From IMG/VR virus record IMGVR_UViG_3300017971_000186: DNA of 47,312 bases. One strand, written 5' to 3'. Positions 1,462 through 17,900 of this stretch are shown here, in pieces; position 1 is the first letter of the stretch; each line of letters starts with the position of its first letter. A program made the position numbers and the translations under genes. The notes below the pieces were generated by a model. That model worked only from the letters and a program-made list of their open reading frames with translations. It made no database searches and was not told the DNA's origin. Source of the stretch: a virus. Taxonomy: Duplodnaviria > Heunggongvirae > Uroviricota > Caudoviricetes.

Positions 1462-1473
1462 TAACTTTAATGA

Positions 1474-1683
1474 TTGGAATATATTATGTTATTTTTAAGT
1501 ATATGTATAGGTGTAATAATATTATTTGGTGCTTTCAGTCTTACTATGAAGATTGAAGCAAAAAGAGAAATTAGAGAAAGATCACCAGAAGAATTGCAGT
1601 CTTTCGAGACTGCTATTAATAAAATTCAAGCTTGGAACAATGGGACATATGATCCAATGATTAGAACAGCACATAATAAATAA
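1474..1683 (+). CDS. Small protein with N-terminal hydrophobic helix
   Basis: Hydrophobic MLFLSICIGVIILFGAFSL; start may be the ATG at 1486. Confidence 0.65.
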   Translation: MEYIMLFLSICIGVIILFGAFSLTMKIEAKREIRERSPEELQSFETAINKIQAWNNGTYDPMIRTAHNK

Positions 1684-1696
1684 GGAGATACAGACT

Positions 1697-2155: not shown

Positions 2156-2160
2156 ATATT

Positions 2161-2673
2161 ATGAGTAACAATGAACTATTAAGAGTATGTGAGGATAATA
2201 ACATTGAACTCACAAAAAACGGCAATAATAAAATTATCCTCACGTGCTCACAGGAGATAGATAACTCTATCAAAGATAAGATTAAAGCAATCGTTTCTGA
2301 GAACACAGAAATAACTTACCAGATAGCACCAAAAGAAAGTACATTGGATGCAATCGAAAACATGTTTAAACATCTTGATATAAACTGTAAGGTCAATTTT
2401 GATACTAAGGAACGTCATGTAATTATTAATGTCGAAAGTAAGATAAATTTATATCTCGAAGATATAGCCAATATCAGAGACAGAATTGATAAAGATGGTT
2501 ATTTCGAAACATTTGAGATTTATTTAAATGGCAACAAAGTTTCTCTTTTAGCTGAAGAGATAACTCGAAACAATAATAGTCATGAGAAGATCATTAAAGA
2601 AAGTGATATTAAGGATTTCCTCATTACTTTGAACACTGCTGAAAGCTTTGAAGATCTATTAAATAAAATATAA
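2161..2673 (+). CDS. Hypothetical protein
   Basis: 170-aa ORF abutting the previous gene. Confidence 0.75.
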   Translation: MSNNELLRVCEDNNIELTKNGNNKIILTCSQEIDNSIKDKIKAIVSENTEITYQIAPKESTLDAIENMFKHLDINCKVNFDTKERHVIINVESKINLYLEDIANIRDRIDKDGYFETFEIYLNGNKVSLLAEEITRNNNSHEKIIKESDIKDFLITLNTAESFEDLLNKI

Positions 2674-2694
2674 ACCTTATCGGGGGAATTAACT

Positions 2695-3003
2695 ATGACT
2701 ATAAAGACATTGAAAGATTTAATTAACTCTGAAGAATATCAGATTTATGCAAGTGAAACTGTACACAGTATACAAGATCATTGCATTAATCCTAATCAAT
2801 ACGATACCGATGTAGATACTATGGAAGAACACAACGAAAACGGTATGTGGGGAGTGACTCATAATGATACTATCCAGAACTGGAGAGATTATTTAAATAA
2901 TGTTCTCGACCTGGATGAGGAAATTACTGAAGCCATTGAAAAAGAAATTGATGAATGCGAACAATGGCACATTGATAATGAATCAATCGAAGATATAATA
3001 TAA
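2695..3003 (+). CDS. Acidic hypothetical protein
   Basis: 102-aa ORF, GGGGG SD. Confidence 0.75.
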   Translation: MTIKTLKDLINSEEYQIYASETVHSIQDHCINPNQYDTDVDTMEEHNENGMWGVTHNDTIQNWRDYLNNVLDLDEEITEAIEKEIDECEQWHIDNESIEDII

Positions 3004-3010
3004 CGAAGGA

Positions 3011-3499
3011 GTGAATAACATGAAAATAACATTAGGTACAGTTAGTCATGCAACAATGAAACCAGAAGATCTTATCCCGTGTTTCTTAGATCTTCTGAAA
3101 GAACTGGATGAAAATAACGAGTATACTTCAGTTATTGCTGAAGGTGAAAAGATCATTAAATATAACGAAGAAAAAGAAGATCTTAATATTCCAGAGGACA
3201 AAGATTTAGACTGGGACAGTGAGAACGTTTCAGAATATCTCAATGAAGATCTTTGGAATGCACTTGATTCTTTTGCTCCGCCATATTGTTACTTCGGTGC
3301 CCATCCCGGTGATGGTTCCGATTACGGTTACTGGCCGTGTGACTTAGATGATATTGATTTCGACGGTATTAAAGTTTCAGACTTGTCTGAAGTCCCTGAT
3401 AACTATACCGGTGAATTGTTCTTAGTGAATGATCACGGTAACGTGACCTTTTACGAAGTTAAAGACGGTGAGACTAAAGAAATCTGGAGCATTGTATAA
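3011..3499 (+). CDS. Conserved phage-type hypothetical protein (FGAHPGDGSDYGYW motif)
   Basis: 162-aa ORF with AAGGAG SD (start may be ATG 3020); the motif resembles a family I recall from large phages, unverified. Confidence 0.75.
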   Translation: MNNMKITLGTVSHATMKPEDLIPCFLDLLKELDENNEYTSVIAEGEKIIKYNEEKEDLNIPEDKDLDWDSENVSEYLNEDLWNALDSFAPPYCYFGAHPGDGSDYGYWPCDLDDIDFDGIKVSDLSEVPDNYTGELFLVNDHGNVTFYEVKDGETKEIWSIV

Positions 3500-3688
3500 A
3501 TGATTGCTTTCCCTTCTCCCCCTGTCTGCACTACTTCATGGTCTGAATATTCATGGTCTGAATATATCAGATTACATGGTGTAGAGACTGAACCTGAATA
3601 TATAAATAGTTCTTTCGGTCTCTGGAAGAAAACAGGCCAGACTGATAATAAAGGCAATGCTCTTTATAGTCTGGTCAATCCCTCATAG
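3500..3688 (+). CDS. Small hypothetical protein with SWSEY tandem duplication
   Basis: Abuts the previous stop; 15-bp tandem repeat TCATGGTCTGAATAT at 3536-3565. Confidence 0.5.
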   Translation: MIAFPSPPVCTTSWSEYSWSEYIRLHGVETEPEYINSSFGLWKKTGQTDNKGNALYSLVNPS

Positions 3689-3765
3689 TAAATAAAAAAC
3701 CCAAATAACTATAATAGCTGACTTTAATAAGTTAGTGGAACCCTTATCATGAAAGGAGTCTTTCA

Positions 3766-4896
3766 ATGGCTCATAATTTATTTACAGCAAAAAACGGTTT
3801 AGTATCGGCTGCATATGCCATAGATGAACATGGTTTACCGTGGCATGAACTAGGACAAATGGTCAATCATGCAATGACCTGGAAAGAAGCTTATGAACTG
3901 GCTCAATTAGATTGGACGGTCGAAAAAAGGCCGTTATTCTTTAAGAATCCTTTATGGAAACCTGGAAGCACTGTACCTAAAGGATATGTTTTCCCGAATC
4001 AATTTGGTATCTTTCGTTCCGATTTAACTGGTAAGGAAAGCGCCCTTGGTATCGTAGGTAATACCTATGAACCTACGCAAAATATTGAAATCGGTGGATG
4101 GATTGATAATGTCTTAGAACAGATTGATGGTGCACATTATGAAGCTGCCGGAGTTTTAGGACGTGGAGAACGTGTCTGGGCTTTGGCCCGTGTCCCCTTT
4201 AACGCTTCCATCGGAAATGATAAACACGAAACATTTATCATGTTTATGAGTGCTCATGATGGAACTATGAGTAATACAATTATGCTCACCGATGTACGGG
4301 TAGTATGTCAGAACACTTTGAATTTTGCCTTATCTAAAGGCACTAAGGATGCAATGATTAAAGTAAGACATACCAAAGGTGCTAAAGAGAAACTTAATAA
4401 AATAACCACTGAGATTCAAACCGGATTAAAACAGGATATAAATTCTCTTAAAGAAAAGTTTGAAAAGATTATTACTCATAAAGTTACCAAAGAACTTTTT
4501 GCACAGACTATGACTCGTATCTTTGGTGAGAAATGGGAACAATCAGATAAGAAATCTGATAAAGCCCTTGAGATAGCTAAACTATTTAATGATAATGATG
4601 ATAATGCTATCCCGGAACAAGCTGGAACGGGTATGGCTTTGGTGAATGCTGTTACTAATTACGTGGATCATAAAAGACCTAGTAGAGTAACATCTACGTC
4701 TGGATATACTACTCAAGAACAAGCCCGTGCCGATAGTGCGTGGGTAGGTAGTGGTGCTCAATTAAAATCCAATGCTCTCGAAACTGTATTGGAATTAATT
4801 GAATCTCCTGAAGAGACTTCACATAATCCTAATCCTACAGTTCAAATGAAAGAAAAGAATGAAACCCTTGATAAGATCTTAGATCTTGTTGGTTAA
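3766..4896 (+). CDS. DUF932 / TIGR03299 phage-plasmid-like protein
   Basis: PWHELG, LDWTVEK, LGIVGNTYEPTQN, AGVLGRGERVW, HDGT and VRVVCQNTL match the DUF932 signature motifs; AAGGAG SD. Confidence 0.88.
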   Translation: MAHNLFTAKNGLVSAAYAIDEHGLPWHELGQMVNHAMTWKEAYELAQLDWTVEKRPLFFKNPLWKPGSTVPKGYVFPNQFGIFRSDLTGKESALGIVGNTYEPTQNIEIGGWIDNVLEQIDGAHYEAAGVLGRGERVWALARVPFNASIGNDKHETFIMFMSAHDGTMSNTIMLTDVRVVCQNTLNFALSKGTKDAMIKVRHTKGAKEKLNKITTEIQTGLKQDINSLKEKFEKIITHKVTKELFAQTMTRIFGEKWEQSDKKSDKALEIAKLFNDNDDNAIPEQAGTGMALVNAVTNYVDHKRPSRVTSTSGYTTQEQARADSAWVGSGAQLKSNALETVLELIESPEETSHNPNPTVQMKEKNETLDKILDLVG

Positions 4897-4900
4897 TATA

Positions 4901-4973
4901 TAACTCTGGCCGGTAGAGAGATAGGAACTCTCTACTGGGGGGACTTATCGATACCATAAGAGTTGAGAGTCCC
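4901..4973 (+). ncRNA. Candidate structured intergenic RNA
   Basis: 11-bp hairpin 4910-4938 plus alternative pairings 4902-07/4959-64 and 4940-45/4968-73. Confidence 0.35.
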
Positions 4974-5028
4974 GAAAAAGTATCGATAATAAATAACATA
5001 TCATAAATAATAAATATGGAGGTATCCA

Positions 5029-5583
5029 ATGAATACTAATGATCTTTTAAATTCTACACTTGATTTAATCAATGATGAAAATAGAACTATCGTTTTAACC
5101 TTCGTTAAAAAAGTTATCATTCCTGCAATGGTTCAAGAGAAGATGAATACTTCTAAACCTGAACAGAAAGAACTTAAAACACCAGTACAAACCACTTTGG
5201 AACTTCCAACTAAATCTGTATCTGAGAAAACAGATAAAGAACTCGACCCCCGTATCCCTAAAGGATCTAAGAACGGGCACAAGATTGAAAAGAAACGCAG
5301 TCTGGAAGATTGGGAGAAAGATTTAATGAGACAGGAGTTTATCGCTCTTAATGGAGAGATACACGAAGATGCCTGTCTGGAAATTAAAGATAAGTTATCT
5401 AGTAAGACTGCAATCTTCCAGGTTACCGGATTTATTTCACTGCTTCATAAGTATGTGAAGAAAGGTGAGATTGAACTTCGTGATATGGAAAGTTACTATG
5501 AATTTCAGAGACAAAAGAAGTCTGGAGTCAAGAAAAAGAAGAAAACTAATATCATAACGATAAGGAGAAGTAACAATGCCTAG
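5029..5583 (+). CDS. Hypothetical protein with basic C-terminus
   Basis: 184-aa ORF, GGAGG SD. Confidence 0.75.
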   Translation: MNTNDLLNSTLDLINDENRTIVLTFVKKVIIPAMVQEKMNTSKPEQKELKTPVQTTLELPTKSVSEKTDKELDPRIPKGSKNGHKIEKKRSLEDWEKDLMRQEFIALNGEIHEDACLEIKDKLSSKTAIFQVTGFISLLHKYVKKGEIELRDMESYYEFQRQKKSGVKKKKKTNIITIRRSNNA

Positions 5584-5809
5584 AGAATGTCCGGTTAATG
5601 GTAGTATATGTAATAAACTTGGAAATGATACCACTCAAAATGGTTCAATTTGTCGCAGTTGTGAACACCACGATTACCGAAAGATTAAATCTAACCTTGA
5701 AATATGCCCAGTAGATTATGGCATTGCTTGTGATAGACTTGGACGTGGTGGAACTTGTGAAGATAATTGTTATACCCAGTCTGGAGGTAAATCATGTATG
5801 AATATTTAA
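5576..5809 (+). CDS. Cys-rich small protein with two CPV-x3/4-C repeats
   Basis: AAGGAG SD; ECPVNGSICNKLG and ICPVDYGIACDRLG. Confidence 0.6.
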   Translation: MPRECPVNGSICNKLGNDTTQNGSICRSCEHHDYRKIKSNLEICPVDYGIACDRLGRGGTCEDNCYTQSGGKSCMNI

Positions 5810-6051
5810 CATGCTGTGTTGCAAGCACAGCAGAACTTATTAACGATATGACTGATAACGGAAGAAAGATAACAGCCAATACTTTCTTTAAACACGTCTC
5901 CCTCCAAGAAGTCAATGAACAGTTTGGATATACAGGAACGTGCATCCCTAGTATTAAAAAAGACTGGCATGTAGCGTACTATAAAAGTACTTATGACGGT
6001 CAAAGATGCTATTATCTTGTACATTCCGCTATAGAATATATCTATGTCTAA
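5794..6051 (+). CDS. Conserved phage-type hypothetical protein
   Basis: GGAGG SD; 85 aa, YEYLTCCV...WHVAYYKS. Confidence 0.75.
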   Translation: MYEYLTCCVASTAELINDMTDNGRKITANTFFKHVSLQEVNEQFGYTGTCIPSIKKDWHVAYYKSTYDGQRCYYLVHSAIEYIYV

Positions 6052-6054
6052 TAA

Positions 6055-6135
6055 AATGGAGTGGTCTAAATCACCGCCATTTGTATCGATTCTCCCAGAG
6101 ACAGCCCCGGTAAATCCGGGGATGACCACCCCATT
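6055..6135 (+). ncRNA. Candidate structured RNA element, copy 1 (P1 stem enclosing CCCCGG-N5-CCGGGG)
   Basis: 6055-65 pairs with 6125-35; inner hairpin 6105-6121; homologous element at 30861-30922. Confidence 0.45.
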
Positions 6136-6206
6136 ATATATAAAATATATCTAAGTCAAATCATTCCAGTTAATTATATTTAATAAAAGAGAGGTATTGA
6201 GGTATT

Positions 6207-6776
6207 ATGGAAACTATAAAATATAAAAACTACACAATTGAAATTCATGTTGATGAAGATCCCTTGAACCCTAGAACAGAATGGGATAATTTTGGATCAA
6301 TGGTATCTAAACATAGACGCTACGACTTCAATGATAAAGGCGCACCATATGACGTCGATTCGATACCCTTTGAGGACGTTATCTATCTACCCCTGTATCT
6401 ATATGATCACAGTGGTTTAACCATGAATACGACTGGCTTTGACTGTCCTTGGGACAGTGGTCAAGTCGGTTGGATCTACGTAGAGAAAAGCAAAGCCCTG
6501 TCTGAATTTAATTGGACAGAACTTAATGAAGAACGTATCGAAAAGATTAAAGATATTCTTCGGTCTGAAGTTGAGACCTATGACTGTCTATTAACAGATG
6601 CTGTCTACGGATACATTGTTAAAAATAAAGATGGTGAAGAGATCCACTCTTGCTGGGGCTTCTTTGGATATGATCATGAAAAGAGTGGGTTACTACCCGA
6701 TACTCGAAGCATTATTGATCACGATATAGACCATATTGAAAAAACTGAAGGTATTCAACAAGAATTAAAACTCTAA
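6207..6776 (+). CDS. Conserved phage/ICE-type hypothetical protein (LYLYDHSG...WDSGQVGWI)
   Basis: 189-aa ORF, GAGG SD; motif recalled from widespread mobile-element proteins. Confidence 0.78.
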   Translation: METIKYKNYTIEIHVDEDPLNPRTEWDNFGSMVSKHRRYDFNDKGAPYDVDSIPFEDVIYLPLYLYDHSGLTMNTTGFDCPWDSGQVGWIYVEKSKALSEFNWTELNEERIEKIKDILRSEVETYDCLLTDAVYGYIVKNKDGEEIHSCWGFFGYDHEKSGLLPDTRSIIDHDIDHIEKTEGIQQELKL

Positions 6777-6790
6777 CAGGAGATTAAATC

Positions 6791-7057
6791 ATGATAAAGA
6801 AAACTTTTAAATTTGACGGATATCATTCTAAGTTCTTAGGACGTAACGGTTCTTTTAAATGTTCCGGTCTCAGTCTGGGGCAATTTGAAAGTCCATTCGA
6901 AGGTGAAAGACCTTTCATAGAAATTAGACCTATAACAAGTAAAGGTCAACCTGGAAAATGTTTCATCGAAGTTCCTATATCTCATATGAGAGAATTAATT
7001 AATGCTCTTACTGAGATAGAAACTGAATGGATAGATAAAGAACAGGAGGGATTATGA
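6791..7057 (+). CDS. Hypothetical protein
   Basis: 88 aa, AGGAG SD. Confidence 0.7.
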   Translation: MIKKTFKFDGYHSKFLGRNGSFKCSGLSLGQFESPFEGERPFIEIRPITSKGQPGKCFIEVPISHMRELINALTEIETEWIDKEQEGL

Positions 7058-7263
7058 TTCAATGTAATCTACCCGAATCAATAGAAGTAAATGGTAAGAT
7101 ATTAAGAAAAGTAATTGGTAAATCTTATGAAGAGGCTTTGAAAGAAGCTAAACTTAATAAGAAAACTTATCGAACAGTAAAAGTCCTTCATAAGAATCTA
7201 CGTGGTAAGTTAGACCTCCACAATAAACCTTATGAACCGACAGTCTGGTTATTCACCAATTAA
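7054..7263 (+). CDS. Hypothetical protein
   Basis: ATGA-coupled to the previous gene, GGAGG SD. Confidence 0.7.
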   Translation: MIQCNLPESIEVNGKILRKVIGKSYEEALKEAKLNKKTYRTVKVLHKNLRGKLDLHNKPYEPTVWLFTN

Positions 7264-7276
7264 CCTGGAGATTATT

Positions 7277-7750
7277 ATGACTATTAAAAGAAAGACTCCC
7301 ATAACAGTTTATAAAGATGGATCAATTAATTTTCAATGCTCCTCTGAATTATACGGAACCACCGATGCCGGAGGCAAAGCCATACACGCTCTTAAGTCTG
7401 GCTTTGTCCCCCTTGGGGACGGGTGTGATTATATCCTTACTAAAAAGGATAAGAAAGATATCTTGGATCAATTAGATATGACCTGGAAAAAATTATTACA
7501 AGAAATGTTTAATATTCCAGAGGAGAACATGAATAATTATTGTTCTGACCTACATATCCTTTTCTCTGAAGAAGTCTGGAAGTGGTTGATGGATAACTAT
7601 GAGTTTCCTCAGAATATTAAGGTTCAATTAAGTAATGTTAAAGGCCAGTCTTGGTATGGGAAACAATTTATTGAGATTCCTTTTGTTTATACAGAATATC
7701 ATACAAAACGAAAGGATTATATTAAATCTTTAAATACCTCGAAAGGTTAG
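7277..7750 (+). CDS. Hypothetical protein
   Basis: ORF track 7232..7750; ATG 7277 follows GGAG and avoids overlap. Confidence 0.7.
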   Translation: MTIKRKTPITVYKDGSINFQCSSELYGTTDAGGKAIHALKSGFVPLGDGCDYILTKKDKKDILDQLDMTWKKLLQEMFNIPEENMNNYCSDLHILFSEEVWKWLMDNYEFPQNIKVQLSNVKGQSWYGKQFIEIPFVYTEYHTKRKDYIKSLNTSKG

Positions 7751-7779
7751 ACTTAAATAAATAATTAAATTTTTTTCTT

Positions 7780-7808
7780 ATCACTTTCTTTCCTAAATCT
7801 CGTATAAT
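7780..7808 (+). promoter_or_regulatory. Putative promoter, -10 TATAAT at 7803-7808 preceded by ATCTCG
   Basis: ATCTCGTATAATAT is identical to the promoter at 38206-38219; -35 poor. Confidence 0.5.
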
Positions 7809-7847
7809 ATATGATACCGAACCGTAATCTTTAAAAGGATATTCATT

Positions 7848-9146
7848 ATGAAGAAAGTACCTGAAAAACTAAAAAACATATTAAAAGAACCATTCGTAAA
7901 AACTCTTATTAACAGGTCTCAGGATGTAGATTATGAGACCTTAGTTAAAAGTCTTATTCCCGATATATTCAGTAAAAATCCTACAACAGTCTGTGATGCT
8001 GAAGGTAATTATACCGGAACTACTCTCGATCTTCAGTCTGCAATGTATAACTTTATGTCACGTAATGCCGTGATCAATATATCTAAGTACCATGCCATGA
8101 GAGGCACAGTCTTAAAAGATGGACAGCACCTTGTCTCAAAAGAAAATAGACACGGTAAAGTCGTTGGCCTTTCTTGTGCTAAAGATCTTTGGTCTTTTGG
8201 TATGAGAATAGTTGATGTTAATATCATGAAGTTCGATGATACCGGAGACTTCCGAGTCTTTAATGTTGTAGGTGTAGACGGTGAATGGTATGAAGGTTGG
8301 GAACGTATAGAGTTCATGCCCACTGCAAAAGAGAACGAGTTCTTTATTAAACTAGCTTCCAATGGAAAGATAACCTTTAATAATTTTATAGCTCCTCAAA
8401 GAAGATTTAATATCTTCTCCTCTAATTACTTTGTAATTAAAATAGCCCTAGCCCGTCTGGAAGATGAAATACAATATCTTGGTGGACTTATTAAACTTAT
8501 GAACGATAAAGGTATTGTCTTACCTCCCGAAGAGAAAAAGGAATGGCCTGAAACTACTAAACTTGGTAACGAGAAAAAAATTAAAATTAAATCAGTCACC
8601 TATGAAGTAGATATTCCTCCCTTGGTCGGGGAATATGCTATGATGCCCCTTAACCAAGATACTCTAGTAGAAGTCGTTAAAAGAAAGAAATGGCTAACAT
8701 ATAAGATCAAATCTCAATTACAGTTCTATATTCGTGGTGAAGAATACGCCAACTTTAGATATGCCAATCCTGATAAACCTTTCCCGCACTGGATGAAAGG
8801 TGTTGAATGGAAAGAATATAAATCACCTAAGAAGTTTACTGTTAATGCTAACTTCTTAAAGAAATTTGATGGTAATGAAAGATCTATCCTTAATCTTATG
8901 AAAGAAAGATCTTATAAAGAAAATGAAAAGAATCAATTCTATGCAGAATATGAATTTCTTAATAAGCTCCTCTTTGGTATTTCTGAAATCCCCGATTCTG
9001 TCAGAGATAAAGTGAAATTCTCAAAAGGCAGAACTAAATATGAACGTCTATTAATCTTTCAACCAGACGTAGGCATGTATGGTATCTCATTATTAAAAAA
9101 GGAATTTGAGAAAACTGAAACAGTTAATGAGAACTATAACGTGTAA
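7848..9146 (+). CDS. Hypothetical protein (432 aa)
   Basis: Long ORF, AAGGA SD; no family recognised. Confidence 0.85.
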   Translation: MKKVPEKLKNILKEPFVKTLINRSQDVDYETLVKSLIPDIFSKNPTTVCDAEGNYTGTTLDLQSAMYNFMSRNAVINISKYHAMRGTVLKDGQHLVSKENRHGKVVGLSCAKDLWSFGMRIVDVNIMKFDDTGDFRVFNVVGVDGEWYEGWERIEFMPTAKENEFFIKLASNGKITFNNFIAPQRRFNIFSSNYFVIKIALARLEDEIQYLGGLIKLMNDKGIVLPPEEKKEWPETTKLGNEKKIKIKSVTYEVDIPPLVGEYAMMPLNQDTLVEVVKRKKWLTYKIKSQLQFYIRGEEYANFRYANPDKPFPHWMKGVEWKEYKSPKKFTVNANFLKKFDGNERSILNLMKERSYKENEKNQFYAEYEFLNKLLFGISEIPDSVRDKVKFSKGRTKYERLLIFQPDVGMYGISLLKKEFEKTETVNENYNV

Positions 9147-9175
9147 TTTATTATAAAGTGTTGGAAATATTAAAG

Positions 9176-9204
9176 TTGACTTTTTGGTTGATTCAGGATA
9201 TATT
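9176..9204 (+). promoter_or_regulatory. sigma70-type promoter TTGACT-N17-TATATT
   Basis: -35 at 9176-81, 17-bp spacer, -10 at 9199-9204. Confidence 0.55.
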
Positions 9205-9210
9205 AAGTAG

Positions 9211-9300
9211 ATAAAGGGTGACACCCTCTTTTGAGGGCGTTCCTTTATTTGTGTTAATGCGCCCCCTCGGTTTTCAGCTTCCAGGGGGCGCAAACTATTT
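9211..9300 (+). ncRNA. Candidate small RNA with two GC-rich hairpins
   Basis: Hairpin 9211-9248; perfect 10-bp stem 9258-67/9283-92; directly after a promoter in a ~540-bp gene-poor gap. Confidence 0.5.
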
Positions 9301-9687
9301 AACTCATCATTTTCTCACAAGACGGTCTGAATGTCCTGGAGACTCGTTTATAATTTATTATAAAAGATCAAAAAAGAGTAGAAAAATATTATTATTTTTA
9401 CTTTCCAAATCTGATTTCTCAGATACAAAATAACCTCCCTAGCCCTATTTGGGGGACGGTACTTACAGTTTTCATCCCTAAGTGTTTTCAGTCTGTTATC
9501 ACAGAAAAATTCAAATTTACTTACACGCACATTGGGGTACTTAAAATTTCATTAAATTCAACAACAATTACTCGCTCAGTAAATAAATATCAATTCGAAA
9601 AATCCTCTCTCAAGATAGTATACGAGAGAGTCTTTAATATATGAATAAAATTAAGAACAATGTTACATATTAACAGGAGGTATAAGT

Positions 9688-10308
9688 ATGTATACTCCAT
9701 TAACTATCATTTCTGAAAACAAGAAAACTGGTGTCTCAATAAACTTTCCCATGAAAGGGCATTGTAGACCTAGTAAGTTATGTCAGAAACTTTGCTATGC
9801 CCGATCCGGACATATGGCTTTACCCAATACCGTGAAAAAACAGAACTATGTTTCTGATTACTTCACCGGTAATGATCTACTCAAAGTCATAGTCGAATGT
9901 AAAAACTGTCATGCAGTACGTTTAAATGGATGTGGTGATCTATTACCTGATCACGTGAATAATATTATTAACCTCGCTAATGAATGCCCTAAAACTATGT
10001 TCTATGGCATGACAAGGAAACCTGAAATAGCAAAGGTCATTAATGATCAATTACCTAATCTCAGATTATTATTAAGTATCGATGCTACAACTCCAAAGAA
10101 AGTCTGGAGTAAATTTCCAGGTAAGATGTGTTTTGGCCCTAGGAGAGACGTAGATACTGTTCCAGATGATCCCCGAATCATTATAGTATTTCCCTACCAC
10201 TGTCATGGTTCAGTAGTTAAAAACGTTCCTAAACATCCTCTGGACTGTCTTGCAGTCTGGCATGAAGTATCGGGATGTTTGGAATGTGCCCGGTGCTGGG
10301 ACTGGTAA
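9688..10308 (+). CDS. GP88-family (radical-SAM-like) phage protein
   Basis: Cx5Cx3CYA, RLNGCGD, YGMTRK and C-terminal GCxxCxxCW; GGAGG SD. Confidence 0.7.
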   Translation: MYTPLTIISENKKTGVSINFPMKGHCRPSKLCQKLCYARSGHMALPNTVKKQNYVSDYFTGNDLLKVIVECKNCHAVRLNGCGDLLPDHVNNIINLANECPKTMFYGMTRKPEIAKVINDQLPNLRLLLSIDATTPKKVWSKFPGKMCFGPRRDVDTVPDDPRIIIVFPYHCHGSVVKNVPKHPLDCLAVWHEVSGCLECARCWDW

Positions 10309-10317
10309 TGCATAGAG

Positions 10318-10346
10318 AAGCCCGACTGTCCGTAAAGGTCGGGCTT
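10318..10346 (+). terminator. 9-bp GC-rich hairpin after the GP88-like gene (terminator or processing stem)
   Basis: AAGCCCGAC/GTCGGGCTT; no U-tract. Confidence 0.45.
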
Positions 10347-10442
10347 ACTCCATGCCTTAAAGCGCGACTCAAGCACTTCTAATACGTAATATATATTTTT
10401 AACTCTACCTGTTCCAGGTAATTATAACAAGGAGAACATATA

Positions 10443-10805
10443 ATGGCATCAACATTAGTAAATCCAATGAACGAAAACGAATTAAAAGAATACGAAATTG
10501 AAATCATAAAGGATTGGTGGTATGATGGTACATGTGAGGATAAATTAGAAATACTCGATACAGTAAAAGATTATACCTGTAAAACTAATGGTAGTAAAAT
10601 CAAAAAGATCCTCGCTATTAAATGGGTACTGAAAAAGAAACAATGCCTTTTAGTAGATGGTGTATTACTGGATCTCTTTAGTGCCAATGTAGTTAATACG
10701 GTCTATGAATATCTTATTAATAATGATAAGAAAGACTTCTTTGTTAAACTCTTTAATACAAACATCACAACTATTATGAATCACTGTTACAAGTGTGTGA
10801 AATAA
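10443..10805 (+). CDS. Hypothetical protein
   Basis: 120 aa, AAGGAG SD. Confidence 0.75.
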   Translation: MASTLVNPMNENELKEYEIEIIKDWWYDGTCEDKLEILDTVKDYTCKTNGSKIKKILAIKWVLKKKQCLLVDGVLLDLFSANVVNTVYEYLINNDKKDFFVKLFNTNITTIMNHCYKCVK

Positions 10806-10806
10806 T

Positions 10807-11094
10807 ATGAAATTAACATGGATAAAACTCGAAAACATACTCCAAGATATGAAAAAGCATGATTTATTGTACGGTAGACAGTGGGTAATAAAAGAAGAGG
10901 CTTTAGTCTTTATAGTGAAACACTGGAAAGGATATTACCCTATTACCAAGACTACCATGATAAATACTTTTACTAAAGATTCAGAAGTACTAGAAATTAG
11001 AATAATCGACAACCAAACTATGAGTGATGAGAGATACGCTAAAGAGATACAGAAGTATACCAATAGATTTCAAATCGCTCTACAGGAGACTTAA
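10807..11094 (+). CDS. Hypothetical protein
   Basis: 95 aa, abutting. Confidence 0.7.
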   Translation: MKLTWIKLENILQDMKKHDLLYGRQWVIKEEALVFIVKHWKGYYPITKTTMINTFTKDSEVLEIRIIDNQTMSDERYAKEIQKYTNRFQIALQET

Positions 11095-11096
11095 CT

Positions 11097-11402
11097 ATGA
11101 ATAACAAAACTAAAGTGATCTTCCGTTTCTGGAAAATATCAAACGAAGTAATAGCTATCTTCCCCGAAGAACCCGGAAATACTAATCCTATGACCTGTTC
11201 GTCTTATGAACATATAGGCCAACACGGAGCCTGTAACCCTTACGGGATCATTCAGGAAAGTAGATTAGCTACTCCCGAAGAATATAAAGATCTTAAAGAA
11301 GAACTAGAAAGCATTGGTTATGATCTAACCATTATAAAAAGACATAGATATCACCATCTCGAAAAGAGAAGAGAAATTATAGTGTCTGGAGGATTATCAT
11401 GA
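11097..11402 (+). CDS. Conserved phage-type hypothetical protein (VIFR...AIFP...YEHIGQHG)
   Basis: 101 aa, AGGAG SD. Confidence 0.75.
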   Translation: MNNKTKVIFRFWKISNEVIAIFPEEPGNTNPMTCSSYEHIGQHGACNPYGIIQESRLATPEEYKDLKEELESIGYDLTIIKRHRYHHLEKRREIIVSGGLS

Positions 11403-12055
11403 GAACAACTAAAATCGAAACTTGGTGTCCTCTCTTTCCAGGGTTCTATAATACCCTGTATGATCTGGATACAGATAAAGTATTAGAAGGTTATAATGAA
11501 AATGACGATTGGCATCATGAAGAAAGAAAAGAAAAAGGATACAGTCTGGATGAAGAAATCGAATATGATGATCTTGAAATCGATAACGAAGGATATGAAA
11601 AAGCCCTCGCTAAAATCTTTGTTGAATTTGTAGAAAAGAAATTAAAACCATATGTTGTTAAAATAAATCTACAAAATGTATCATCCCCTAAACAGTATAA
11701 CTATGAAAACGACTCGATAAATATTGAAGTAGAAATTGATCTTGAAGCTATCAAAAAATTCTTTGAGAATAAAGAAGTCCTTAAATCTTATTCTACTTTC
11801 TTAAAAGCTATCTATACTAGCTGTGACGGTTTCATCTCATCCTATAGTAATGATGTAGATGTCTGGTTAGAAGATATCAAAAGATTACCAGACATAGAAA
11901 ACATTGAACATAAAATGGGAAGTATCCTAGAATTTATTCTGGAGTATGAAAAGGAACTTGTTCCAAGTGATGACGACCTAGAAATATACAATGCAGTAAC
12001 AGAACTTATTTCTGCAAGTGAATTCTGTTCACTCAAACAAAAAGAAGAGGAATAA
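11399..12055 (+). CDS. Acidic conserved phage-type hypothetical protein (FPGFY...SPKQYNY)
   Basis: 218 aa, ATGA-coupled, GGAGG SD. Confidence 0.78.
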   Translation: MRTTKIETWCPLFPGFYNTLYDLDTDKVLEGYNENDDWHHEERKEKGYSLDEEIEYDDLEIDNEGYEKALAKIFVEFVEKKLKPYVVKINLQNVSSPKQYNYENDSINIEVEIDLEAIKKFFENKEVLKSYSTFLKAIYTSCDGFISSYSNDVDVWLEDIKRLPDIENIEHKMGSILEFILEYEKELVPSDDDLEIYNAVTELISASEFCSLKQKEEE

Positions 12056-12098
12056 ACTGTAGTAGATCTTGTAACTCATAAAAAAGGATATACCCATC

Positions 12099-12269
12099 AT
12101 GAAAGAAAAAATATCTACCGCACTAGGCATAATTATGATCCTGGCTATTATGGCAGGTTCTATAGGAACATTCTCATGGTCATGGACAATCGGTCCAATT
12201 ATGGGAATATGCTTTATTACCGCCATAATTCTATGTATACATGAAATAACAACCAATAGAAAGGATTAA
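12099..12269 (+). CDS. Small two-helix membrane protein (56 aa)
   Basis: Read manually: MKEKISTALGIIMILAIMAG...IMGICFITAIILCIH; AAGGA SD. Confidence 0.6.
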   Translation: MKEKISTALGIIMILAIMAGSIGTFSWSWTIGPIMGICFITAIILCIHEITTNRKD

Positions 12270-12275
12270 CAAAAA

Positions 12276-12527
12276 ATGTCAGTAAAATATACAAAAAACC
12301 CTAATAATAAATTCCCCAGAGCTACCGGTATGAATGATAGTATCTATCACTTTAAAGATACTAATATCCCAGAGACAGAAATACTGAACGACCTACGACA
12401 GTCTGGAGCTATCATATATGAATATGAATCCAGTACTGTCCTAGTAAGACTCGATAACCCTGATCAATTCATCATTAAATTTAAACAAACTAAAAGTTGT
12501 AATCTGACATCTCTTAAAAAGGATTAA
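12276..12527 (+). CDS. Hypothetical protein
   Basis: 83 aa, AAGGA SD. Confidence 0.7.
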   Translation: MSVKYTKNPNNKFPRATGMNDSIYHFKDTNIPETEILNDLRQSGAIIYEYESSTVLVRLDNPDQFIIKFKQTKSCNLTSLKKD

Positions 12528-12530
12528 ACT

Positions 12531-12902
12531 ATGTACTTATCAGAACTCAAAGGATATGAAGGAACAGATACAGATCTTGGTACATCTCTCTATGAATACG
12601 GTCTGGCATGGAAGTTTATAAAGAAAGAAAATGAATATCGATTCTACTATAAAGTTAATGTTGCAGAAAAAGCAAACGATTGTGTATTTGATTGGGCCAC
12701 TGTAAATGCTGATATAGATTTTTGGGAAGAATATGATTGGGTCTCTAAAAATGACCTACTTAGTTTCCTGGGATTAACAGAGAATGAATTTAACAAGTTA
12801 CCTCTCCCTGTTAAAATCAGTGACCTAGTTAGTCATTCTGGATTCGAAAATGTCTTTGGTAGTTGTTATAATTCTTTCTCTATCACAACTAACCAGTATT
12901 AA
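12531..12902 (+). CDS. Hypothetical protein (cassette 1)
   Basis: 123 aa; SD supplied by the repeat. Confidence 0.75.
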   Translation: MYLSELKGYEGTDTDLGTSLYEYGLAWKFIKKENEYRFYYKVNVAEKANDCVFDWATVNADIDFWEEYDWVSKNDLLSFLGLTENEFNKLPLPVKISDLVSHSGFENVFGSCYNSFSITTNQY

Positions 12903-12936
12903 ATGACAATCTGACATCTCTTAAAAAGGAAATATT

Positions 12937-13194
12937 ATGAAATATCAAAACTTACTTAATCGATACAATAATTTAGAAAAAGAAATTAAAGAAGCATTAA
13001 AAACTGAGATCAATAAAAGTAAGACCAAATCAAAACATATCGATAGTAACGCTATCAAAGTAAATGTATTTGATTATGAGGAACTAGTAATAATTAATTC
13101 CAAATTAACTTTTTTGGATGCAGAAGGTCTACATTATTCAATTTATTGTGAATGTGAATTAACTGACTTAATTGATATCCTTAAGAACATATAA
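12937..13194 (+). CDS. Hypothetical protein (cassette 2)
   Basis: 85 aa; SD supplied by the repeat. Confidence 0.75.
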   Translation: MKYQNLLNRYNNLEKEIKEALKTEINKSKTKSKHIDSNAIKVNVFDYEELVIINSKLTFLDAEGLHYSIYCECELTDLIDILKNI

Positions 13195-13248
13195 ATCAAA
13201 AGAAACTAAAAGTTATAATCTGACATCTCTTAAAAAGGATTAACCAAT

Positions 13249-13542
13249 ATGGATTATCAAGAATTAAGATTTGTATATAGTCATACCGGATTCCTTAAGA
13301 ACATATATAAATCAAAAAAGACTAACCGATACTATGCCCTGCAATGGGATAACGGATATAGTCAATATCCCCACTTCTATTCAGCCACAAAAGATGGCGA
13401 AGCCGATTGCCCAATCAAGAAAGAAGCTATCCAATACTTCATATTCCCGGAAGGCCATGAACACTATGGAGAGATCCTAAAAGAAAGTGTAAGAGCTGAA
13501 TTATTATTAAAGAGCTTAAAGGAGAAAAAGGAAAATGAATAA
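13249..13542 (+). CDS. Hypothetical protein (cassette 3)
   Basis: 97 aa; SD supplied by the repeat. Confidence 0.75.
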   Translation: MDYQELRFVYSHTGFLKNIYKSKKTNRYYALQWDNGYSQYPHFYSATKDGEADCPIKKEAIQYFIFPEGHEHYGEILKESVRAELLLKSLKEKKENE

Positions 13543-13756
13543 TAAAATTGTTAAAGCCCGTAGGACTCTGACCGCCATAGGTAAGAAATACGGTCTCACA
13601 TTTGATAAGAAGCATCATTACTATACAGGGAATGCTTATGTGAATAATAAAGGTGAAACTTTACCTACTGTATTCAGAGAAGGAACTGATGAGTATAAAC
13701 TTCAATACATAGATGGATGTTTTCACCCATTCCTCGTACAGAATAACCAGGAGTAA
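13535..13756 (+). CDS. Hypothetical protein
   Basis: 73 aa, AAGGA SD. Confidence 0.7.
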   Translation: MNNKIVKARRTLTAIGKKYGLTFDKKHHYYTGNAYVNNKGETLPTVFREGTDEYKLQYIDGCFHPFLVQNNQE

Positions 13757-13762
13757 AAATTT

Positions 13763-14086
13763 ATGAAGATCCAAAACCAAGATTTAATCATTAAAAGAGT
13801 TACTTTCACATCTTCATCCTTAAAAGAGATCATGATAAAACATAAACAATTAAACGAAGATGGTTATAAAATAGTCGAAGTCAATCTTACCAATGATGGG
13901 TGTGAAGGTGTACTGGAAAAAGAATTATCCATAGCAGATTACATCAAACAAAATCCTAAACTCGAAACTGAAGATCCCGACTTTCCTATGAAAGAATGGA
14001 GACTCGCTGTCTCTAATGAGGAGACCCGTCTGGGTTATGATAGCTGGGTGACTCATCAAAAAGAACAACATAATATCAGAAAATGA
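13763..14086 (+). CDS. Hypothetical protein
   Basis: 107 aa, AGGAG SD. Confidence 0.7.
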   Translation: MKIQNQDLIIKRVTFTSSSLKEIMIKHKQLNEDGYKIVEVNLTNDGCEGVLEKELSIADYIKQNPKLETEDPDFPMKEWRLAVSNEETRLGYDSWVTHQKEQHNIRK

Positions 14087-14277
14087 ATAAACAGAAATAC
14101 AAAATTGAGTATACTGATTCCAAGAATAAATTAACCAAAGTTTTCTTTGTAGACCGACCATTTAACTCTGCATTGAAACAGGCAAAAACATTTATCAAAC
14201 GAAATACTCACTTAAATATTAAACTGCTTTATAAAAATTGGAGTAGCAAATATAACTTTGGTTGGAAACAAACCTAA
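14083..14277 (+). CDS. Hypothetical protein
   Basis: 64 aa, ATGA-coupled. Confidence 0.6.
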   Translation: MNKQKYKIEYTDSKNKLTKVFFVDRPFNSALKQAKTFIKRNTHLNIKLLYKNWSSKYNFGWKQT

Positions 14278-14291
14278 ACCTGGAGGTAGCA

Positions 14292-14459
14292 ATGGCTCGT
14301 TATTATAATATTACTATTCATAGAAGAATTAAAGTACAAGATCCTTTACCCGATAACTGTACTATTGAAACTCTTGAGGACGAAATCTCTGTTGAATATC
14401 CTTTCGATGTTGAAGAAATCGATGGAGAAGTATCTGCAAACCTAGAAGATTCGGACTAG
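14292..14459 (+). CDS. Small acidic hypothetical protein
   Basis: ORF track 14262..14459; ATG 14292 follows GGAGGT. Confidence 0.65.
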   Translation: MARYYNITIHRRIKVQDPLPDNCTIETLEDEISVEYPFDVEEIDGEVSANLEDSD

Positions 14460-14460
14460 T

Positions 14461-14545
14461 TCAGTCTGGAAATCCCGTTCCCCAAATCAGTCTGGAAATT
14501 CAGCCTGGATTTCAGTCTAAAATAGTCAGAATCGACTTGTCTGGT
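14461..14545 (+). repeat. Intergenic cluster of CAGTCTGGAAAT-like motifs
   Basis: CAGTCTGGAAAT at 14462 and 14488, CAGCCTGGAT at 14501, CAGTCTAAAAT at 14513, GTCTGG at 14539. Confidence 0.85.
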
Positions 14546-14583
14546 AAAACTTAAATCAGTGTCCCCCAATCAAGGAGAGAATT

Positions 14584-14844
14584 ATGCCAGAAATCAAAAG
14601 AATCAATAACCAATTGTATGGGATTGAGCAATTTGGTGCACCTGGAAGCTTATCAACCCCGACTATTGCCGGAGTTCATTTCAATCCCGGTGAATTAACC
14701 AAGAAAGAACGTGAACATGCCAGAGCAGTCGCCTGTGTATCTTTTATCAGACTTATCTGGTATGCTCAGGAAATGAATAAATCAAACTGTTCATATAAAC
14801 AAGCAGTAATAACCGTTAACAAACGTATCAAGGAGTTAAACTAA
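14584..14844 (+). CDS. Hypothetical protein
   Basis: 86 aa, AAGGAG SD. Confidence 0.7.
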   Translation: MPEIKRINNQLYGIEQFGAPGSLSTPTIAGVHFNPGELTKKEREHARAVACVSFIRLIWYAQEMNKSNCSYKQAVITVNKRIKELN

Positions 14845-14978
14845 TGACTGGATGGTGGAATTTAACCTTCTCTGGAGTTGATGAACTCAACGATCTTGAT
14901 AGAGAACACATAGCAGAACTTATTAAAGAAGGATATACTTCTGGTGAAATCATACACCACGAAGATGAAGAAGAATAA
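14844..14978 (+). CDS. Small acidic protein (44 aa)
   Basis: Read manually: MTGWWNLTFSG...EHIAELIKEGYTSGEI; TAATG-coupled, AAGGAG SD. Confidence 0.6.
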   Translation: MTGWWNLTFSGVDELNDLDREHIAELIKEGYTSGEIIHHEDEEE

Positions 14979-14984
14979 ACCTGT

Positions 14985-15034
14985 TTTAAGCCTGTCTGGA
15001 ACTGAGAGGTAGCTGAATACCTCTTCAGTCTGGA
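14985..15034 (+). ncRNA. Candidate hairpin element, copy A
   Basis: TTTAAGCCTGTCT leader plus 40-nt hairpin containing ATACCTCT; homologue at 18780-18829. Confidence 0.45.
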
Positions 15035-15070
15035 TATGGCCTGAAAACCTATTTAAACGTACAATGAGAG

Positions 15071-15262
15071 GTGATTATGAAATTACAAGGATGGATCATA
15101 ATAAATAAAGATAAAAAATTCGCATGGGATGATAACACAGAGTTCTATACTGACTTTAATATAGCCAGCATACGTACAGTAGAACTCACACAAGGTACTG
15201 AACCTGGAACTCAGTTTGAAGTAGTTCCCGCTACCCTTACCTGTGAGGCATTGAGAGACTAA
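15071..15262 (+). CDS. Hypothetical protein
   Basis: 63 aa, GAGG SD. Confidence 0.65.
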   Translation: MIMKLQGWIIINKDKKFAWDDNTEFYTDFNIASIRTVELTQGTEPGTQFEVVPATLTCEALRD

Positions 15263-15513
15263 TGCATATCACAAGTATAGATCAAATAAACATGAATGAA
15301 CTTCCCATAGAAGTTCAGAACGAAATTAAATCAGCCGATAGCCTAGAGTTCCGTGGATTACACGGTGTCCAGGAAATCCTGGGACGTGGAGACTCAAAGA
15401 TCATTTTCTGTCTGGCAGTAACATATAAAATTCTATCCAAGTCATTCCAGGTCTGGAGCTACGGATCAGATAAATGGCAATGGTCTTGGATGAGTGGACT
15501 AAGACCGTCTTAG
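15262..15513 (+). CDS. Hypothetical protein
   Basis: 83 aa, TAATG-coupled. Confidence 0.65.
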   Translation: MHITSIDQINMNELPIEVQNEIKSADSLEFRGLHGVQEILGRGDSKIIFCLAVTYKILSKSFQVWSYGSDKWQWSWMSGLRPS

Positions 15514-15638
15514 GTCTTTCCCCCAGTCTGGCCAGAAACAGTCTGGAATCGCCCCTGTCTGAGTTCCCAGTCTGGAAATATCAAATTTAGGGGTAACCCC
15601 CCTCGTTTTTAACCCCACTTTTGATAGTCGGGAACCAG

Positions 15639-15716
15639 TTTCCCCAAGTCAAATACCCAAATGAGCAAGTGAAATTATTCTTCTCTACAGTCAACAACCA
15701 ATTTCCCCAAGTCAAA
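15639..15716. repeat. 15-bp direct repeat TTTCCCCAAGTCAAA x2
   Basis: 15639-53 and 15702-16. Confidence 0.9.
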
Positions 15717-15887
15717 GACTCGGTTTGGGAAGACATTAACTTACTTTGATCAGTCAATTACCCTGTGTAAATTTACTTATACAGATAACAAAAGATTATT
15801 AATATATGATTGTAGGAACTAGGAAATCGGTTCCGGGTTTTGCAGGGAGAATAAATTTTTTCAAAATACTCGTTGGAAATTCCCGAC

Positions 15888-16033
15888 ATAGTTCCTGGTA
15901 TTGACTTACCCATTATTCTATTCAAGGTAATGGGTAAGTACTCAAGTTTTCCCTGACATAGTTCCGAGTTCATAGTTCATGATGGTATAGTTCCTGGTAC
16001 TGACTTACTCATTATTCTATTCAAGGTAATGGG
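15888..16033. repeat. 47-bp direct repeat x2 (2 mismatches) overlapping a 12-bp inverted repeat
   Basis: 15888-15934 and 15987-16033; ACTTACCCATTA/TAATGGGTAAGT at 15904-15/15928-39. Confidence 0.9.
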
Positions 16034-16147
16034 CATACTGATACATATTAATTTTCTCTTACAGAGTTATTATATGGATAGGATACAGATATACTTAATG
16101 GATAGTTTATAGGTTATTAGATATAGGGGATAGGGATAATTACATTC

Positions 16148-16167
16148 ATATTACTAATTAGTAATAT
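16148..16167. repeat. Perfect 20-bp AT-rich palindrome
   Basis: ATATTACTAATTAGTAATAT. Confidence 0.9.
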
Positions 16168-16556
16168 ATAGGGGGATATGTTTATAGGTATAGACATATA
16201 GTAAGTTAATATATTAAGATAATAATGGGATTTGTATAAATCCCTTTCAGTGCCCATACATAGTTACTTAAGAAATGCCTTAAAGGGTTCCACATTTTTA
16301 TAGGTGCTATGTGTGGGTTTTTTATTATAAAGATATGGATATTGATGAGTAAGAGGATTACCTTAAAATTGTTATTTGATTTATAGATCGTGTTTATTAC
16401 TATATAGACCATAGTTTAAAGATATAGGACGACTGATTTAATAGAGATTAATACGGACGCACCATATAGGACGTTGGTATTTGATAGTATTAAAATGTTA
16501 TATTACTGGATAAAAAAGGTAATTGGGTATATATAATGTTATATGGAGGTAAGAAT

Positions 16557-16727
16557 ATGGATAAAGTATCGTTACAGGTTAATTTAGGATATAGTTCAGA
16601 TAAGCTAAGTGCTTATGGGCTGATTGAGGATAAGCCGAGGATTATAATAGTGAGAGATTTCCCGGAGTTATTTAAACAGGTACGTGGATTGGGGATAAAG
16701 CTTGAGGATTTAACAAGGAGTAAATAA
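16557..16727 (+). CDS. Small hypothetical protein, paralog of 17902..18084
   Basis: ATG 16557 after GGAGG; shares LQxNLxY and DKPRIIIV. Confidence 0.75.
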   Translation: MDKVSLQVNLGYSSDKLSAYGLIEDKPRIIIVRDFPELFKQVRGLGIKLEDLTRSK

Positions 16728-16729
16728 TC

Positions 16730-16885
16730 ATGTTGAAGATATATTATAAAAATGTAAAAATATGTCCTTTCTATAAAGACAAAGAAGTTGAAGTTGGAAA
16801 AGGTTGTATTTATTGTTCTTATTTTAAAGAAAAAAAAGCTGATTATGTAGTCTGTGAATTTTATGAAAAAGATTGGAAGAAATAA
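16730..16885 (+). CDS. Small Cys-containing protein (51 aa)
   Basis: Read manually: CPFY...GCIYCSY...VCEF; AAGGAG SD. Confidence 0.55.
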   Translation: MLKIYYKNVKICPFYKDKEVEVGKGCIYCSYFKEKKADYVVCEFYEKDWKK

Positions 16886-16887
16886 TT

Positions 16888-17229
16888 ATGGCATATGAAA
16901 ATCAGATAAAATGTATTGTTTGTGGGATTAGTATCCCGGATGTCCCGGAGGATGCTACTTCTGAAGAGTTATTATGTGAAAGTTGTTATGAGAGGTTGGG
17001 CTATTTGGATAAGTATCCGAGAGTAGGTGATTATTGGATAGTTAGTAATCAATATTTACCTGATGGATTTGGTAGAGCTGCTTCGACTTATTATTATATC
17101 GTTGATTCAGAGGGTAGGATATTTCATCATAAGGATAAGAAGTGGCGTATTAAAAAATTGAAGGATATAACGACTTTTTATTTTAAGAGTGAAGATGAAG
17201 CAAGGAGATATATAGAGGAGGAAATGTAA
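16888..17229 (+). CDS. Hypothetical protein with N-terminal CxxC...CxxC zinc finger
   Basis: ORF track 16873..17229; CIVC and CESC. Confidence 0.7.
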   Translation: MAYENQIKCIVCGISIPDVPEDATSEELLCESCYERLGYLDKYPRVGDYWIVSNQYLPDGFGRAASTYYYIVDSEGRIFHHKDKKWRIKKLKDITTFYFKSEDEARRYIEEEM

Positions 17230-17231
17230 TT

Positions 17232-17900
17232 ATGAGAGTTAATATAAGTGCAGATGGTAGTCGTGGCTATAAGATAGGTGATAAGGATTTATTAAATTCA
17301 TTGCCTGTTGGTTCCGAGATTGATAAAATTAGGTTGGTTAAATTTAGATCGGGAACTGAGTATGAGCGTTTAAGTTTGTTGGTGGATTTTCATTTTGACT
17401 TTGATGCTGATATTAGTCCTGATCGTACTATGGAGGTTGTATTAAGATACAATGATGGTTACAAGGGTAATATTATAAATAGTTGTGCCCGTATGGATGA
17501 GAGTCTTGAGAAGGTTAGTGATGTTAAGATGGCACCTTACATAGAGTGTGGTGCAATTGTAAAAGGTATTCGGTTTCGGGGATACCTTCATCAGGAGTGT
17601 ATCTGGATAGATTATGAGGCATATGATTTAAAGAATGTTTTTGTTATTGTATTGGGTGACCCTGATGATTTCCCGGATTTGTTGGTATCGAAATATGAAG
17701 TGAAGTTATTTAAAGTTAGGGTATCTCGTAGGGAGGATTTATCGGAGAGTGATATGGATGCTGAGGATTTAGAGCAGGAAGTAGAGGACATCTACTTTTA
17801 TGATACTATTACAGCGGAGAAGGCTATTGATGAGTTGTTTCAGGAGGTTCCGATAAACTTACCTGAGAATTATAATATTTATTCAGAGAGGGCATGTTGA
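17232..17900 (+). CDS. Acidic hypothetical protein
   Basis: 222 aa, GAGGAGG SD. Confidence 0.75.
   Translation: MRVNISADGSRGYKIGDKDLLNSLPVGSEIDKIRLVKFRSGTEYERLSLLVDFHFDFDADISPDRTMEVVLRYNDGYKGNIINSCARMDESLEKVSDVKMAPYIECGAIVKGIRFRGYLHQECIWIDYEAYDLKNVFVIVLGDPDDFPDLLVSKYEVKLFKVRVSRREDLSESDMDAEDLEQEVEDIYFYDTITAEKAIDELFQEVPINLPENYNIYSERAC

Follow-up and report, generated by a model that had tools for sequence, protein, structure and literature searches.

A non-coding gap of about 1 kb in the genome of a huge phage reads best as the boundary of an operon and not as an origin of replication that divides two replichores. Judged from its sequence, it has about an even chance of being a composite hub of control elements from which an early-type operon of ORFan genes is launched, the extreme base bias beside it being the imprint of R-loops. 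Nowhere in the genome is DNA poorer in C and richer in G and T than in the leader and the first four genes of this operon. Their non-template strand has lost C and A and gained T and G, a direction of change that is consistent with deamination of a strand that is often single-stranded.

The DNA analyzed (the window, 47,312 nucleotides, to whose numbering positions refer unless they are called genome positions) is the reverse strand of bases 4,462–51,773 in one virus contig of 469,617 bp. The contig is taken as a complete circular map because its ends overlap by 58 bp. The genome has 34% G+C, is about 92% covered by ORFs and is laid out in long runs of co-oriented genes that switch between strands; the gene map is a crude longest-ORF call. 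The upstream gene ends with a stop codon at 15513 and the downstream gene starts at ATG 16557 behind GGAGG, and the gap therefore comprises 15514–16556 (genome 35,230–36,260). It contains no credible gene, no tRNA by folding and no Rfam family. Genes of the + strand flank it on both sides, as the original prediction stated. None of the neighbors matches Pfam or PHROG, and all are ORFans: one protein has zero homologues among 5.8 billion proteins, and a protein of 222 aa has no family and no usable Atlas match. For a left-flank gene the closest homologues (64 and 56% identity) are on contigs of 1–1.5 kb. The features of the gap and of the tract that begins in it are collected in Table 1.

Table 1. 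Features in and beside the gap, in window positions.
Feature	Positions	Strand	Basis or detail
Terminator-like hairpin and T-run closing the upstream operon (last ORF 15262–15513)	15589–15610	+	5-pair stem, 4 GC; −7.3 kcal/mol, z −2.9
C-rich patch (on +: C 25%, G 16%)	15514–15800		GTCTGG ×3 (15526, 15541, 15570), 31-nt repeats, shared box
Possible leftward unit: 56-codon ORF (TTG start) or non-coding RNA	15587–15757	−	ORF search, codon positions; weak evidence for a real gene
Inverted copy of gene-upstream motif (sense form TTAATAATCTTTTGA)	15789–15808	−	32 nt before the TTG at 15757
Pair of 47-nt direct repeats (distance 99 nt), an ATAGTTC box before each copy	15878–16033	+	4 ATAGTTC boxes in all
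Easily melted stretch resembling a DNA unwinding element	16042–16241		Nearest-neighbor stability, 99.95th percentile of 200-bp genome windows
C-depleted, G/T-rich tract (C 8%)	16063–17789	+	Change-points, genome-wide rank, codon-position composition, GC4 skew +0.52
Seven TATAGG boxes, + strand only	16108–16470	+	7 vs. ~0.2 expected; densest ATAGG cluster of the genome
Promoter-like site TTACAT-N16-TAATAT under a 20-bp palindrome	16140–16167	+	Read from sequence; context compared with consensus promoters of the genome
Candidate small RNA of ~150 nt	16174–16326	+	Long hairpin 16252–16318, then U6; −28.3 kcal/mol, z −5.3; unit z −4.8
Weak look-alike of main promoter class	16503–16559	+	Same 29-nt spacing to TATAAT; then GGAGG 16546–16550, ATG 16557

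The C-rich patch holds two 31-nt direct repeats (15626–15656 and 15689–15719), a box shared with a second hub described below (15642–15658) and, at 15752–15763, a variant of the 12-nt core with one mismatch; a 15-nt repeat reported before is present at 15639 and 15702. The 31-nt repeat appears as an LTWGNW duplication inside the 56-codon leftward ORF. As a conserved gene this ORF was rejected, having no true homologues and only weak matches to repeat proteins, and the product of the leftward unit may therefore be RNA. The motif that stands inverted in front of it is 20-fold over-represented in the genome (16 exact 12-mer cores, 0.8 expected), and at least 12 intergenic copies have the sense form 11–68 nt upstream of a gene start. 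It recurs in the window at 38111–38125, and in some places it is part of an 18-bp palindrome. Probably it represents a second class of promoter or regulator site. A leftward transcript fired from it would explain the C-rich patch, which would then be G-rich on its own sense strand like every other transcription unit here, and with such a transcript no switch of fork direction is needed to account for the C-rich side.

The repeats in the middle of the gap are as described before. ATAGTTC occurs at 15888, 15958, 15972, and 15987, and the copies of the 47-nt repeat (15888–15934 and 15987–16033) are 96% identical. The 12-bp stem attributed to this repeat exists (15904–15915/15928–15939) but is perfect in the first copy only, with −17.9 kcal/mol against −6.7 in the second.

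The right half of the gap contains the promoter-like sites. The perfect 20-bp palindrome was correctly placed at 16148–16167; it covers the spacer and the −10 element of the site at 16140–16167, and from this arrangement looks like an operator. That site is not listed by a sigma-70 scan of the gap, in which sites were no commoner than in shuffles (12 vs. 19.1). The strong terminator hairpin downstream, taken with the promoter-like site, suggests a transcript of about 150 nt. This candidate has two hairpins and, in addition, the long terminator hairpin, which its centroid structure retains; Rfam has no match for it, and folds of the whole region are not significant (z −1.3 and −0.9). The 10-nt repeat noted earlier at 16422 and 16464 belongs, in both copies, to the TATAGG boxes. 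The look-alike promoter before the first gene matches the upstream element at 6 of 11 positions, the consensus being drawn from about 13 sites elsewhere. Promoters of this main class have a T-rich element similar to the T4 MotA box, then, 17–19 nt farther on, an extended −10 (yGTATAATA), and after it an ATAGG start region; about 13–15 well-matching copies occur in the genome, mostly before genes, for example at 7771–7810 in the window.

Base composition changes sharply inside the gap. The counts first reported are exact (19 C and 8 G at 15601–15660; 2 C and 16 G at 16081–16140), and the jump in skew is far beyond chance. By change-point analysis the C fraction drops from about 0.17–0.20 to 0.08 at 16063 and goes back up at 17789. 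The tract so delimited takes in the right half of the gap together with four ORFs (16557–16727, 16730–16885, 16873–17229, and 17232–17900); no other 1.5-kb stretch of the 469.6-kb genome is skewed as strongly (|skew| 0.51; 99.9th percentile 0.487). GC3 skew is −0.21 in the ORFs on the left and +0.66 in the four on the right. The step is thus present at synonymous sites and is therefore not an artefact of amino-acid usage or of the coding strand, which bears out the original prediction on this point. In the tract, C makes up 0.078 of the non-coding DNA and 0.086, 0.118, and 0.051 of codon positions 1, 2, and 3, with T3 raised and A3 lowered. Since non-coding DNA and all three codon positions are depleted to a similar extent, the cause acts on DNA or RNA and not on proteins.

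Avoidance of palindromes or restriction sites was considered as a cause and rejected: GC-containing palindromes are at the 0.5th percentile in the gap tract and at the 65th in the corresponding block beside the second hub, so that avoidance is not a shared explanation. An argument from gene-to-gene patchiness against a regional cause was dropped because the heterogeneity is not significant. Some selective cause for the C-poor tract is nevertheless conceivable.

The shape of the bias is asymmetric. The C-rich patch extends for about 300 nt only, and the strong G excess for 1.7 kb, after which it fades; the far edge of the skewed zone is diffuse, with a plateau of the log-likelihood ratio (LLR) at 23.5–34 kb. 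Such a profile, sharp at its onset and slow to fade, points to a process starting at the gap, unlike a switch of fork direction with a defined terminus. Of the skew inversion claimed earlier, the jump is real, but there is no inversion of sign on the scale of a replichore, total skew to the left of the gap being about +0.05.

Skew plots are the usual shortcut to replication origins. In this genome raw cumulative GC skew tracks gene orientation, and its minimum (genome 52,160) lies in a divergent gap at an orientation switch, about 16 kb from the place where the original prediction required it, an outcome that the prediction itself had named as refuting it. The whole-genome cumulative minimum of GC3 skew does coincide with the gap, because GC3 reverses only between 16.5 and 28 kb of the window, and at fourfold sites only the 1.7-kb tract is left of the reversed zone. 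When total or GC3 skew is fitted with two segments, one of the boundaries falls at the gap (best fits at genome 35–37.5 kb); the GC4, AT4, and AT3 partitions have their boundaries elsewhere.

Almost everywhere, the + strand of the genome has an excess of G at synonymous sites, whichever way the genes run (coding-strand and strand terms of 0.09 and 0.16 for GC3, −0.13 and 0.15 for GC4). It is also T-rich at these sites in either gene orientation, the GC strand term being about 0.15–0.17. A uniform one-strand bias suggests replication that is largely unidirectional or resembles a rolling circle, and this skew pattern of the “unidirectional type” has been reported in roughly 30% of huge phages (PMC7162821). 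In the fit of fourfold sites, the block that departs most is one of + strand genes at genome 237,500–260,000 with 40–41% G+C and negative GC4 skew, which may be foreign DNA.

The second hub lies at genome 51.5–53.1 kb, just beyond the start of the window (it also takes in window 1–270). It is a non-coding stretch of 1.6 kb at a divergent gene switch and includes the raw cumulative minimum. True tandem arrays, which the gap lacks, are present here: 4.4 copies of a 77-nt repeat, 2.5 of a 20-nt repeat, and 16 of a 14-nt repeat, together with a C-rich patch and promoters. Among the blocks of the genome, the genes to the right of this hub rank second in skew (GC4 +0.62 and AT4 −0.40, compared with +0.52 and −0.43 downstream of the gap). 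Of the 12-mer core AGTSAAATACCC the genome has exactly three copies, two in this hub and one in the gap, and each copy lies in a C-rich patch. The 9-mer TATAGGACG is present twice in the gap and once in the 52-kb hub, each time shortly before the first gene (about 90–135 nt from it in the gap, about 265 nt in the hub), and in the hub it follows a good −10 element. The order of the boxes is the same in both places, and the distance from the first box to TATAGGACG is about 780–815 nt in both. Apart from the shared boxes there is no extended similarity between the two hubs in DNA or protein, and a duplication of the hubs or of their genes was rejected for this reason.

Gap and 52-kb hub face outward from a 16-kb segment into hyper-skewed genes. 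Downstream of 13 consensus promoters elsewhere in the genome, skew is ordinary (0.06–0.31), and the imprint is therefore specific to the two hubs. The 52-kb hub is at least as good an origin candidate as the gap.

Arrays of VIPR guide RNAs, which have 9–16 tandem GGY/NN pentamers per RNA (bioRxiv 10.64898/2026.04.26.720920), were considered for the gap and rejected, as it contains no run of four or more GGY/NN units. A run of five GGYNN pentamers exists just once in the genome, on the minus strand at genome 52,067–52,091, in the C-rich patch of the 52-kb hub, and is shorter than the arrays of these RNAs.

Read as a control hub, the gap would work from left to right. The hairpin with its T-run would stop the upstream operon; the inverted gene-upstream motif would probably fire a short leftward transcript, leaving 300 nt C-rich on the + strand; the repeat boxes, which resemble protein-binding sites, would follow; the promoter guarded by the palindrome would probably yield the RNA of about 150 nt; and the rightward operon of small ORFan genes would be launched. 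Transcription from the hub could then form persistent R-loops over a G-rich non-template strand beside an easily melted segment. R-loops are favored by G-rich transcripts over C-rich templates (PMC4412123). Anatomy, composition, motif statistics, and the twin layout are directly observed; we infer the direction of transcription, the R-loops, the early timing, and any priming of replication. The result of the sigma-70 scan, the lack of homologues of the leftward ORF, the non-significant folds of the whole region and the weak match of the promoter before the first gene to the phage consensus count against a control hub; moreover, C depletion begins 500 nt upstream of that promoter, and this reading therefore needs the putative start site farther upstream.

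Several known systems share part of this anatomy. Early-operon control regions and operon boundaries of large phages, with promoters, small RNAs, and operator palindromes behind a terminator, resemble the gap in its terminator-like hairpin beyond the last upstream gene, its promoter-like sites (one of them under a palindrome) and the Shine-Dalgarno sequence ahead of the first ORFan gene of the operon; unlike these, the gap is 1 kb long in a genome that is mostly ORFs, is extremely skewed and has a twin module 16 kb away in which boxes and spacing recur. Promoters with GC-skewed R-loops (CpG-island promoters, mitochondrial OH/CSB, ColE1; PMC4412123) have, like the gap, an excess of G on the non-template strand immediately past the putative start and G clusters at the start itself; the gap differs from them in lying in a low-GC phage, and its R-loop is putative.

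In a possible but less probable reading, the gap is a working origin built of a promoter and an unwinding element, in the logic of T4 oriF/oriG, ColE1, or the T7 primary origin. A transcript starting at about 16.17 kb would form an R-loop in the easily melted, G-skewed DNA and prime the rightward leading strand, and the opposite fork would copy nearly the whole circle. In T4, oriF (uvsY) and oriG (gene 34) consist of a promoter and a downstream A+T-rich unwinding element; they are primed by an R-loop, and the non-template strand is left single-stranded (PMC3016281). These are the building blocks proposed for the gap (a putative promoter, a segment resembling an unwinding element and a putative R-loop), and origin function is therefore a serious rival. 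As in oriF and oriG, the promoter-like site would read into very unstable duplex at a transcription-unit boundary, the non-template strand is biased as single-strandedness would produce, and no sequence motif is required beyond the promoter and the unwinding element. Unlike T4, the phage has a replisome of PolA/DnaB type, and the skewed tract of 1.7 kb is far longer than a minimal origin of about 100 bp.

Several observations are in favor of such an R-loop-primed origin. The segment at 16042–16241 is among the least stable duplex DNA of the genome (top 0.05%), G clusters occur at the putative start, and the non-template strand is the most G-skewed of the genome. The cumulative GC3 minimum is at the gap, as is one boundary of the total and GC3 fits, and the one-strand bias suits largely unidirectional replication. 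The imprint is also absent downstream of the 13 ordinary promoters. On the other side, the GC4, AT4, and AT3 boundaries lie elsewhere, there is no sharp terminus, and the twin at 52 kb has the same imprint, far richer iterons (16 × 14 nt and 4.4 × 77 nt) and the raw minimum. Searches for an initiator, a DnaA box, and an RNase H gene gave nothing, and the replisome genes are about 75 kb away. DnaA-type 9-mers within one mismatch are absent from the intergenic DNA, which is a weak test; two such matches begin at 16556, overlapping the ATG of the first gene, and at 16625, within the body of this gene. A search for a MotA homologue gave no match in the phage and is uninformative, since the control was silent too. 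Iteron origins (lambda ori, plasmid oriV, T4 oriE) are comparable insofar as the gap has direct repeats beside an A+T-rich segment. They differ in that its repeats are paired (31 and 47 nt) or irregular short boxes, three or more regularly spaced repeats of 12–22 bp are absent, and no initiator gene is recognizable.

A more speculative proposal, to which only a small probability is given, joins transcription and replication in both hubs. They would be twin launch modules facing outward, at which transcription-coupled R-loops prime replication and drive immediate-early expression; the same R-loops would have rewritten 1.7–3 kb of downstream DNA to 8–11% C, and the modules would bracket the 16-kb segment with its polar field of hexamers.

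The hexamer is GTCTGG. It forms a plus-strand field at 3669–15575 and a minus-strand group at 661–874, so that the copies point away from a place between 0.9 and 3.7 kb and accumulate at both hubs. The gap may, improbably, be the junction between a separately evolving 16-kb segment (257–15513) and the phage backbone. The shared boxes and GTCTGG clusters would then be sites for binding at the ends of a segment that is mobile or invertible, or else an array for segregation or packaging, and the composition step a seam between DNAs of different history. Such a junction would fit the abundance of GTCTGG (29 copies in 12 kb of the segment, 1.7–7.5 expected), with 10 copies within the 1.1 kb that precede the gap and four inverted ones at 661–874 near the other hub, the inversion of the boxes at the two ends, and a GC4 skew of −0.43, the most negative of all minus-strand gene blocks. 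It is opposed by the spread of the hexamer through the interior of the segment, by the lack of extended homology between the hubs and by the absence of a recognized transposase, recombinase, or terminase in or adjoining the segment. The hyper-skewed tract lies outside the segment, and a junction leaves it unexplained.

Less probable still, and quite unlikely, is the bidirectional origin of the original prediction, dividing two replichores and marked by the C-to-G switch. The local V shape of the skew between co-oriented genes and the GC3 minimum agree with it. The genome-wide skew contradicts it: there is no second replichore, the reversed zone takes up at most 12 kb of 470 kb (at fourfold sites, the 1.7-kb tract), and the raw cumulative minimum is at 52,160. 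What survives of the claim that the gap is the phage ori is thus an origin-like anatomy and the GC3 minimum, and not a bidirectional origin that divides the skew. An assembly chimera of two genomes near 16 kb, to which the abrupt change of composition could point, is very nearly out of the question, given that the contig closes on itself, that boxes from both halves of the gap recur in the 52-kb hub, and that the same promoter and gene-upstream motifs are found on both sides and all round the genome.

Relatives of this phage were sought at several levels. IMG/VR scans seeded with six proteins gave no relative of synteny grade, a scan for the shared box gave 10 single matches, judged to be at about chance level, and a metagenome scan for the repeat pair gave nothing. 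Phages in GenBank have nothing similar at the DNA level, and their replication proteins are only about 31–37% identical. The phage also carries inteins with a LAGLIDADG endonuclease, one in a radical-SAM protein and one in the large subunit of ribonucleotide reductase. In a PolA frame of 1,272 aa the halves of the polymerase are about 1.2 kb apart, and the insert is probably another intein (intein and PolA loci at genome 71,669–73,762, 204,003–208,085, and 428,090–431,878).

To our knowledge, the replication origin of an uncultivated huge phage has yet to be mapped. The present case shows that the skew shortcut can mislead in such genomes: the raw minimum marks an orientation switch, the synonymous-site minimum marks a tract of 1.7 kb, and the overall bias of the genome favors one strand. 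The functions that the phage expresses earliest may be encoded by the hyper-skewed first genes, and the twin modules are two concrete candidates, both clonable, for sites of R-loop formation and of origin activity. If the proposal of R-loop-primed twin modules is true, they would represent a previously undescribed architecture of origin and early region for huge phages.
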